From contig CAVQKJ010000004.1 of NCBI GenBank assembly GCA_963713105.1, positions 548,035 to 612,034 of the forward strand: a stretch of 64,000 nucleotides of DNA, read 5' to 3'. The notes beneath the pieces are model-generated. The model saw only the letters and a list, made by a program, of their open reading frames with translations. It was not told the origin of the DNA and ran no database searches. Shown here in pieces: positions 14,599 through 17,312 of the stretch; the first letter of the stretch is position 1; each line of letters opens with the position of its first letter. The translations under genes and the position numbers were made by a program. Origin of the DNA: an uncultured Chlamydiae bacterium. Lineage in GTDB: Bacteria; Chlamydiota; Chlamydiia; Chlamydiales; SM23-39.

Positions 14599-17312
14599 CT
14601 AAAAATCCCTCGTGAGGCGCAGCATTCCTTCCTGGGTCCAGTATTGAGATCCGAATTCGCCGTTGTATTGGATACTTAGAGTGACTGGCTTGATTTGGCC
14701 CCAGCGCCAGAGGAATTCAAGCCCTGCGGAGCCGAGGTTTTGCGTGTCGCGGAAAGTTTCGAAGCTGAAGAAGGCAGGGGTGCCGACGATCGAGGCGGAG
14801 ACGCCTCCGGTGCGGAAGGCTTTAAGGTTGACGTAGCTTAATTTTTCCATGACCATCCAAGAACCCCAGCATGTGTTTTTGGTTTGGAAGAAGCGGAAGC
14901 CTCCTTCGGAGCGAAGGAATTGGGAACAGTGGGATTCTTGGGACATGTTGAAAGCGCCGGCGCCTGATTCCTGGAAATTGTCTTGCCAATCTACAGCCAG
15001 GTCGAATTGGGCAAATGGATTGACGGTGAAAAAACTGCAGTTTTCATGATAACCGATCCCGAAGTGGGGAACGAGCTGCCAGCTATGGTAGTCGGCTTTA
15101 GCGGTCAAATCGGTGCCGGGAAAGAAAATATGCCTTTCGTTATGGATTTGGTTGTATGCGCCCCAGGCGGCAAATTCTAAATACAAAGGGATATCGCCTA
15201 GGCCATAAACAGTGTCGTAAAGGGTGGCAAAGAAATAGTCCAAATGGGCTGTTCCGGCTGCATCATGATCAGTTATACGCGTATAAGCGCCCCCTGCGCC
15301 AATGCCGAATAGGTTCCGCTCCCCATAGAAATCCCATCCCAGGATGCCGCCGCCCGACCAGAAATGGAAAGCGGGATTTTCATCCAACTCATCTTGATGG
15401 GCATATTCTGCCAAAACTCCAACCCAGAAAGAATGTTTCTCGCAAGTGGGCGGCAAGCACATCCGTCCTGAGGCGTCCGCTGTCAGCAGGTTTGTTTGCT
15501 CATCGAACAAAGAGGCGACTTCTGGCCTTGAACCTTTGGGCCCATGATAGAATCGCTGGTCGACCAAGTGGCCTGCCAGAAGATTGTTGAATGCGAATAA
15601 CGTGTTTTGCTCAGCAAATGGGACAAAGGCGTTTCTCGAGGGAGATGCGCTCACCAAAGCGTTTGACAAAGTGCTGCCGGAAAGGTTTGCGAGAGCCAAA
15701 GTGGCGGAAGAAGTCGGTGCATTTAAATTCAGATAGCGGGCGAATTTCGCTGCTTGGCCTCTCAGGCCTGTTGTGTTGATGAGTAAGCTGGATGGATTGC
15801 TATTCATTACCCAGTTTAATAAAACATCGGTATTAGATTGGTAGGTTAAAGACAAAGTATATCCAGGTAGACTTCCCAATACAGTCGAATTGAATGTACC
15901 TGTATAAGGTGTCGTAGAATGAAGGATTAAGTTGCTGCCGGAAGTTCCATAATTGCCCGGATCGGCCACGACTTGCACGCTGCCGCCTAATGTGACAGTA
16001 GCTCCAACTCCAGTTACAGTCGATAAAATTTCAGATGATTGGGAGGGGGAGATTTCAATTTGGGTGATACTACCGTTATCTAAGATCAAATTCCCCGCGA
16101 CCGTCAATGTCCCGATCGATGTTCCCGGAGCAATGGTCCCCCCAGAGGCGACCGTTACGGCTTGCACCGTTCCTGTCCCTTTCAGCGTGCCTCCGCTGTT
16201 GACCGTCGTGGCGCTGGAAGTTATAGAACCCGTCACGGACAAGATTCCCGCATTGACATTAGTTGCGCCGCTGTAGGAAGCAGTATTTGAATAAGTGAGC
16301 GTCCCTCCTCCAATTTTTTCCACAGTCGTGAAGGGAGGTCCCGCAGTTTCAGTAATCGTTCCGGACAAAGTCAATGCGGTCGTGGAGGCGATATCGAACG
16401 CAGCAACGGAATTTGTCTCATCAATTATTTGTACAGATTGAGAAATCGTAAAAGGAGTGCTTCCCGTAACTTGAAAGGTGCTTGTTCCATTCGCTCCTCC
16501 GATTTCTAACATATTTGTGAGCCCTATGTTGGCAAAAGAGGAAACAGAAACAGTTCCTAGCTCAATTACTAACTGTTCTATTGAATTGCTCGTTCCGGTT
16601 AGCGTTATAAATGCGGTGTTACCATTTGTTGCGAACTGAATTAAGTTATTAAGGGTCCCGCTAAAGGTTGTATTATTTGTAGTGAGGAGTAATACACCCT
16701 CCCCCCAAAACCCGTTACTTGGCCATTGCCGGTAAGGCCTCCTGCAATCATTTCTCCATCGATTTGAAAGATTCCAGGATTTACAACATTTAAATTCCCT
16801 GTATAAGCTGAAGAAGCAGCGCCAAAGTCGTTATATTCAACTGTTCCTGAAAGGATGTTCAAATCTCCAGCGCCAGAAAAAGTAGTGGGGGTGTTCTGTA
16901 GACCGATCGCAATATTATTTCCGGAAGTATTGGTCACATTGACTGGGCTTGAGAATACGAGAGTTGGGGGATCGAATGCCAAGCTGCCGCCTGTTGCGTT
17001 TATAGTCGCAATTCCCGAATTGCAATTCGTTGCAGAAAAAGTGAATGAGCCGCCAAGTATACCTATATCAACTGTTCCCCCTGTCATTTCCAAACTCCCC
17101 ACTGTGATTCCTCCACCGGGCAGAGTGACAACATTTGCCGTATGGGCCGCAGTGAAGGTCGCATTGGCGTCGGTCGAATCGGGATAGCACCCTCCAGTCC
17201 AAAAGGAGGCATTGTCCCAATTATCATTGTCTGCTCCTATCCAGGTATTTGTCGGCGCGGGACATGTTGGCTGCGGACATGCTTGGGCAGCGAGGAATGA
17301 AGGTATCAACAA
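14599..17312 (-). pseudogene. Pmp-like autotransporter (passenger + C-terminal beta-barrel), interrupted by a frameshift at a G6 tract; no canonical start codon
   Basis: ORF 16641..17312 is a signal-peptide-like N-terminus (KKSFHLSLSTIALLIPSFLAAQA|CP) plus passenger. ORF 14599..16512 continues the passenger and ends in an autotransporter beta-domain (...LEFLWRWGQ...YNGEFGSQYWTQEGMLRLTRDF). The second frame is open and passenger-like back to 16700, and the frames switch at tttGGGGGGaggg (fwd 16701-16706 CCCCCC). No in-frame ATG lies upstream of the signal peptide (only TTG/ATT). Confidence 0.7.

Follow-up and report, generated by a model that had tools for sequence, protein, structure and literature searches.

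A one-base break in the autotransporter gene of an environmental chlamydia is probably a consensus error, not a poly-G switch

The 64-kb stretch of DNA analysed here (the window; positions 548,035 to 612,034 of contig CAVQKJ010000004.1, assembly GCA_963713105.1, from an uncultured Chlamydiae bacterium) carries on its minus strand an autotransporter gene that is broken in two at a run of six G residues, and a seventh G would make it whole. Is such a break an on/off switch, a true lesion in a gene that is being lost, or a one-base mistake in the deposited sequence? An earlier note on this DNA had put forward phase variation of a Pmp-like autotransporter, with homopolymer sequencing error as the alternative. 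Comparison with an independent assembly of public reads leads us to conclude that the break is probably a one-base consensus error in the window's assembly and not an on/off switch, a reading to which we would give a rough probability of 0.63.

The minus-strand frames, and the effect of inserting one G in silico, were read directly from the window. Frame 0 is free of stop codons from 17405 to 16641 and ends ...TGNGQVTGFGG RVYYSS... before its stop; frame 2 is stop-free from 16830 to 14599, reads ...GEGVLLLTTNNTTFSGTLNN... / EGVLLLTTNNTTFSGTLNN... from 16700 onward, and has the C-terminal end ...RLTRDF. The two meet at ggttttGGGGGGaggg, with the G6 at minus-strand positions 16706..16701 (C6 on the plus strand), and everything the earlier note had said of the sequence of these two clean frames holds on re-reading. 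One added G gives a single open reading frame (ORF) of 917 codons from an ACG at 17351, or 904 from a TTG at 17312; the break then falls at residues 217/218 of the fused protein, within the passenger, and the codons of the G7 tract are GGG GGG G(AG), encoding Gly-Gly-Glu. The parts of the locus are these, P0001 being the deposited protein, Logan the independent assembly, and the homologue a metagenomic protein described below:

14599 to 17351, minus strand: the whole autotransporter gene as G7, from the ACG aligned with Met1 of the homologue to the stop codon at 14601-14599.
16701 to 16706, minus strand: the G6 run at the meeting point of frames 0 and 2, which is G7 in the Logan contig.
16641 to 17312, minus strand: the N-terminal broken ORF, 223 aa from the TTG, its last 15 codons out of frame and followed by a stop.
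14599 to 16512, minus strand: the C-terminal ORF (637 aa, P0001) annotated in the deposited genome; upstream of its start the frame stays open, with homology, as far as 16700.

The 637-aa ORF shares its 90%-identity cluster with P0121, a protein of 904 aa from Logan run ERR11523645. Logan contigs are assembled run by run from 31-mers seen at least 2 times, simplified with Minia3, and searched for genes with Prodigal (PMC12424806); because they are built from such 31-mers, public reads do contain the G7 allele. The Logan contig (L081, 3,008 bp) matches window positions 14496-17502 at 3,007 of 3,007 bases, and the single gap in the alignment is one extra G, making the tract G7. P0121 is intact, reads ...VTGFGGEGVLLLTTNN, and continues across the tract as ...GQVTGFGGEGVLLLTTNN...; it carries the very junction, GFGGEGVLLLTTNN, that had been predicted for a G7 gene. 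The closest homologue, P0002 (metagenomic, 937 aa), can be aligned with 100% of the fused protein at 46% identity, and the alignment passes through the junction unbroken. On both counts the proposal that the two ORFs are halves of one autotransporter of about 900 aa, restored by G7, is borne out, and the single polypeptide of passenger, linker, and barrel needs G7, as in P0121.

The same comparison can be extended well beyond the gene. Eight Logan contigs of ERR11523645 span 44.5 kb of the window and differ from it by 15 substitutions and 2 one-base indels; the indels are the autotransporter tract and a site in purM, and at each the intact version is Logan's. When the first 14 substitutions were classified, 12 proved synonymous, 1 non-synonymous, and 1 intergenic, and all 6 that separate the two assemblies in purL are synonymous. 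These figures indicate co-occurring, closely related strains of about 99.97% identity. Given purifying selection of this strength (12/14 synonymous), three real gene-killing indels set against one amino-acid change would be unlikely in nature. The broken products (P0001, P0125, and P0128) are known from NCBI/ENA records only and never from Logan, whereas their intact neighbours occur in NCBI, ENA, and Logan. The substitutions lie at 8101-8656 (purL), 5060, 5788, 5818, 20852, 23034, 23073, 36938, and 41331; 6 of the 14 classified are clustered in 555 bp of purL, adjoining a Logan contig break.

The purM gene (AIR synthase) is split on the minus strand into 10179..9523, which holds AIRS and positions 1-46 of AIRS_C, and 9572..9228, which holds AIRS_C positions 46-150; the lesion is an extra base at 9564, in ccaactGaggatc, outside any homopolymer, and it interrupts the conserved LLTPT-R-IYVK. 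PurM repaired in silico (317 aa) is found by exact sequence in ERR11523645 (P0126, contig L082). A third gene, purL (6306-9234, minus strand), is split by one extra base near 6975-6985 (cttGGGAAcg): its upstream piece resembles residues 67-507 of T. thermophilus PurL (3viu_A) and its downstream piece, in another frame, residues 513-719, and homologues cover 98-99% of the repaired PurL. The exact repaired PurL was not in the protein collection, and a homology search gave no near-identical Logan fragment; the Logan contigs leave 6625-8041 uncovered, the purL site included. Other candidates for split genes (purN/purD, a GMC oxidoreductase and its neighbour, two glycosyltransferase-like ORFs, and an alanine symporter with the ORF upstream) were rejected, these overlapping same-strand pairs showing either complete domains or no sign of a split. 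The alternative of homopolymer error is thus the one favoured, in that a second one-base frameshift, in purM, is absent from the Logan run, a further frameshift lies in purL, and only 2 indels occur in 44.5 kb.

Window positions 1-10179 (minus strand) hold an apparently complete de novo purine operon, with purN, purD, a purC/E-like gene, purH, purQ, purL, and purM; the purL of this operon has an N-terminal extension. Chlamydiae usually obtain their nucleotides from the host. With the sequence as deposited, an annotator might score the purine pathway as defective, and if the frameshifts are artefacts, purM and probably purL are misreported as broken, a false hint that this chlamydia cannot make purines.

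On the reading we favour, the gene would be an uninterrupted type Va autotransporter, with a signal peptide, a beta-helical passenger bearing a PATR repeat, a helical linker, and a 12-strand barrel; the true tract would be G7, and the G6 of the window a one-base under-call in the deposited consensus; within a few kb the same assembly would hold at least one, and probably two, more one-base indel errors, in purM and purL; and the tract itself would serve no mechanism, its G residues being simply those of Gly-Gly-Glu codons. We infer that the window's contig derives from an error-prone, probably long-read, consensus, and that the Logan run represents the same or a sister sample. A long-read assembly is suggested by the length of the source contig, 1.36 Mb for an uncultured bacterium, and consensus indels in long-read assemblies, notably those of low-coverage metagenome-assembled genomes (MAGs) with microdiversity, are known to frameshift gene calls (PMC9262707). 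If the break is such an artefact, the deposited genome under-reports an intact surface autotransporter of 904-917 aa.

The start of the gene is also unusual. In frame from the upstream TGA (17408-17406) to the TTG at 17312 there is no ATG, GTG, or TTG; it had correctly been observed that no in-frame ATG or GTG stands ahead of the signal peptide and that an ATT lies 8 codons upstream, and this atypical start is common to both assemblies. The relevant elements are:

17349 to 17351, minus strand: ACG codon aligned with the initiator ATG of the homologue (MKKSILLSLAAV versus TKKSFHLSLSTI), identical in both assemblies.
17373 to 17375, minus strand: in-frame ATT, read directly, 8 codons upstream of the ACG and of the TKKSFHL... 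signal peptide.
17310 to 17312, minus strand: TTG, the first canonical in-frame start, used by gene callers and leaving no more of the signal peptide than MLIPSFLAAQA.
17280 to 17351, minus strand: signal-peptide-like N-terminus TKKSFHLSLSTIALLIPSFLAAQA, with a KK n-region, a hydrophobic core, and AQA before Cys.

The N-terminus of P0002, MKKSILLSL..., aligns with TKKSFHLSL..., so that Met1 corresponds to the ACG codon, and TKKSFHLSLSTIALLIPSFLAAQA, which aligns with it, looks like a putative Sec signal peptide. Apart from ACG codons, the ATT is the sole near-cognate candidate for a start that would retain the entire signal peptide. Since no ATG, GTG, or TTG precedes the signal peptide, a secretion-competent product would need near-cognate initiation at the ATT (17375) or at an ACG. 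In what we consider the best explanation, the ATG of the homologue would be the ancestral start, replaced here by ACG in both assemblies, and the gene may be expressed only weakly or be at the onset of decay. The ATG to ACG change common to both assemblies is a small but genuine curiosity as to how, or whether, the gene is translated. A mini-ORF of three codons (ATG GTG TAT TAA) lies in another frame at 17371-17382 (minus strand), just upstream of the region coding for the signal peptide, and overlaps the candidate ATT start. A promoter and terminator scan of 14300-17750 turned up no element upstream of the gene, and its matches were no more frequent than in shuffled sequences.

Several of these observations count against a consensus error: i) the evidence is at the level of assemblies, and is compatible with a real mixture of G6 and G7; ii) the long-read platform of the window's assembly is itself inferred; iii) with 15 substitutions between them, the assemblies reflect somewhat different strains or choices of consensus, and the indels too might be genuine differences between co-occurring strains; iv) two of the three frameshifts strike purine synthesis, which is dispensable, and the three sites lie within 10 kb of one another, which fits locally relaxed selection or decay; v) the start codon is lost in both assemblies, so a later real frameshift would be neutral; and vi) the purM insertion, lying outside a homopolymer, is not the most typical long-read error.

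Much of this would be expected if the frameshift were real and the gene decaying, that is, if a G7 had lost one G by replication slippage and left a fixed or strain-specific lesion after the change from ATG to ACG, in parallel with real purM and purL frameshifts in a genome that is shedding functions. The ACG that both assemblies show in place of the homologue's ATG suggests that the gene may already be non-functional and a frameshift neutral; the G7 run is a mutational hot spot; the three frameshifts crowd into 10 kb, two of them in an operon that a host-dependent chlamydia could plausibly lose; and the real-looking, mostly synonymous differences between the assemblies point to more than one strain. 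We nevertheless think decay distinctly less probable than a consensus error, though it is the strongest of the rivals. Both halves of the gene are otherwise free of lesions, and over 3 kb the locus matches the intact allele at 100% identity; three disruptive indels against 1 non-synonymous change are implausible under the purifying selection seen here; the differences in purL are 6 synonymous and 0 non-synonymous; and the broken version is invariably that of the window.

What the gene encodes matters for the remaining possibilities. The fused protein matches the Pfam autotransporter beta-domain PF03797 at residues 642-896 (E 3e-23); its PATR repeat matches PF12951 with E 1.4e-05, just under the curated cut-off, and TIGR02601 with 22.4 bits, above the cut-off of 19.85. 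The domains map to the window as follows:

16234 to 16320, minus strand: PATR, or autotransporter-associated beta-strand, repeat (fused residues 345-373; PF12951, TIGR02601).
15805 to 17177, minus strand: beta-strand-rich passenger (fused residues about 59-516; AlphaFold model).
14605 to 15435, minus strand: autotransporter beta-barrel translocator (Pfam 642-896, modelled barrel 640-916; PF03797, Foldseek).

An AlphaFold (AF2) model of the fused protein, made from a 10-sequence alignment and having a mean predicted local distance difference test score (pLDDT) of 72.9, shows strands at residues 59-516, helices at 520-613, and 12 long strands at 640-916; pLDDT is 75-87 near residues 200-240, and the break sits in confidently modelled passenger. 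The top Foldseek matches for the model are autotransporter translocators: AaaA, EstA, NalP, Hbp, EspP, BrkA, and AIDA-I. The description of the gene as Pmp-like did not survive this analysis. Searches of the fused protein against Pfam and NCBIfam gave no match at E <= 0.1 to Chlam_PMP, the POMP repeat, or the PMP middle domain, and its 917 aa contain 0 GGA[ILV] and 3 FxxN motifs. With the summary of Pmp-defining features in PMC3323650 as yardstick, the gene is not a Pmp, because the defining features of the family are missing, and we reject membership on the lack of domain matches together with the 0 GGA[ILV]. As far as sequence and model can predict, the gene is a classical PATR-type type Va autotransporter, a new and ordinary member of that class in an environmental chlamydia.

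Nor does the tract itself stand out. The window contains 22 G/C runs of at least 6 in its 64 kb, four of them 7-mers (287-293, 23408-23414, 33942-33948, and 36243-36249); the runs include a G7 inside argG (36243-36249) and a second G6, in frame, in the same autotransporter gene (16138-16143); because such runs are common in the window, a G6/G7 tract is not exceptional. At the tract site P0002 has GLIQLGNNV (ctggggaac) and no run, in the one full-length homologue compared. The P0002 gene (contig L084, gene 30-2843) does have an in-frame G10 at 207-216, near its 5′ end, the GGG of ...FVSGGGVGLG..., and further carries two G7 and five G6 runs on the sense strand; this G10 makes a stronger candidate for slipped-strand mispairing than the tract to which attention had been drawn.

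We note separately that the runs are strikingly asymmetric: all 22 on the plus strand are C>=6 and none is G>=6, and the ratio of C5 to G5 is 38:15, irrespective of gene orientation, so that sense G runs occur in minus-strand genes and sense C runs in plus-strand genes. The asymmetry has the same direction as a steadily negative GC skew but goes far beyond what the skew by itself would predict.

Phase variation by slipped-strand mispairing would make the tract a G6/G7 contingency switch and the two assemblies its two states. The assemblies, from essentially the same strain, do differ at this locus in tract length alone; G6 splits the gene and G7 leaves it intact, with the coding sequence otherwise undamaged in both states; the product is a surface protein; and sense-strand G runs abound in the gene of its closest homologue (G10, two G7, five G6). 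Known G/C switches usually have at least 8 residues, against only 6-7 in the tract here; runs of this length are common in the window, housekeeping genes such as argG included; the site is not conserved in P0002; and no second sample or isolate with the locus was found when JGI metagenomes were scanned with an exact pattern of variable tract length (0 matches). Moreover, the purM indel is not in a homopolymer, and therefore no switch explains why purM has the same pattern of intact and broken versions. There is a precedent in C. psittaci: when one strain was sequenced twice, long poly-G tracts in its pmp genes came out in different frames (PMC3323650); those tracts are described as "long", and whether they reflect artefact or slippage was left open there (PMC3323650). 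Phase variation is thus neither shown nor favoured, the tract being 6-7 long, at background level for the genome, and not conserved in the closest homologue, and we regard it as improbable. Slightly more doubtful still is the specific proposal that G6/G7 is a real, recurrent polymorphism that toggles a non-Pmp PATR autotransporter with a non-canonical start (ATT or ACG) in a natural population; if true, poly-G switching of surface autotransporters would extend beyond the pmp family of Chlamydiaceae, a modest extension of a known idea. More generally, homopolymer "phase variation candidates" taken from single assemblies of uncultured genomes require read-level support.

Least probable of all, to the point of being hardly credible, is recoding of the G6 allele at G GGG GGA, whether by slippage during transcription or by programmed -1 ribosomal frameshifting with a rare AGG in the A site. 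Re-pairing in the -1 frame is possible for a tRNA-Gly bound at the second GGG, and would give the same GFGGEGV product. The site has no canonical X XXY YYZ heptamer, however; the predicted folding of the 97 nt that follow is no stronger than that of shuffled sequences (z 0.48); a G7 allele that needs no recoding exists; and the site is not conserved in the homologue. We rejected programmed frameshifting for want of a slippery heptamer and a downstream structure and in view of the intact G7 allele.

As to the organism, the transketolase encoded in the window has named relatives in the Chlamydiota, the Rhabdochlamydiaceae, and Ca. Algichlamydia, with 66-78% identity; for those named as Chlamydiota and Rhabdochlamydiaceae the figure is 74-78%, and the similarity is not of Chlamydiaceae level. 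The best genomic relatives of the autotransporter come from Chlamydiae MAGs, in which genes of this kind stand in tandem arrays; a scan of genome contigs gave distant Chlamydiae relatives only, at <=42% identity, with no synteny with the neighbours in the window. A second PATR autotransporter, intact, lies at 45565-49185 (1207 aa) and is 35% identical to the broken one. The window is rich in outer-membrane proteins (13045-14331, 21530-22633, 42140-44665, 45562-49185, and 57237-60420), the set consisting of an OprB-family porin, four Legionella_OMP/MOMP-like paralogues (three in tandem), an inverse-autotransporter-like beta-helix protein, and the PATR autotransporter.

Set beside known systems, the break has most in common with the consensus errors of long-read assemblies (PMC9262707): there is a one-base error in homopolymer length, further one-base indels occur in conserved genes nearby, the broken ORFs have clean halves, the contig is very long and comes from an uncultured organism, and an independent k-mer assembly differs in indels at frameshift sites. 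It departs from them in that the purM indel is an insertion outside a homopolymer, and in that a G7 is within the length usually resolved by current chemistries at good coverage.

The poly-G tracts of pmp genes in Chlamydiaceae offer a likeness of another kind: the host belongs to the Chlamydiota, the protein is an outer-membrane autotransporter, a G run in the passenger sets the frame, and the same question of artefact or slippage arises, for example in CPSIT_0305/0312/0666 of C. psittaci 6BC (PMC3323650). The tract here differs in being short (6-7) and ordinary for its genome, the protein is not a Pmp, and the host is an environmental chlamydia outside the Chlamydiaceae. Poly-G tracts are also a feature of C. 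pneumoniae pmp genes. With the Pmp family as such the gene shares a C-terminal autotransporter beta-domain (PF03797 and the modelled barrel) and its encoding in a member of the Chlamydiota, but the protein lacks the GGA(I/L/V)/FxxN repeat sets (PF02415 / TIGR01376) and the PMP middle domain.

The closest comparison for the protein is with type Va autotransporters. Sequence identity to the solved barrels is just 10-15%, no catalytic or adhesin domain is recognised in the passenger, and the signal peptide is not preceded by a canonical start codon; the PF03797 barrel, the PATR repeat, the beta-rich passenger, the helical linker, and the 12-strand barrel of the model are nonetheless those of the class, with structural matches to AaaA (9oqa), EstA (3kvn), NalP (1uyn), EspP (3slt), BrkA (3qq2), and AIDA-I (4mee).

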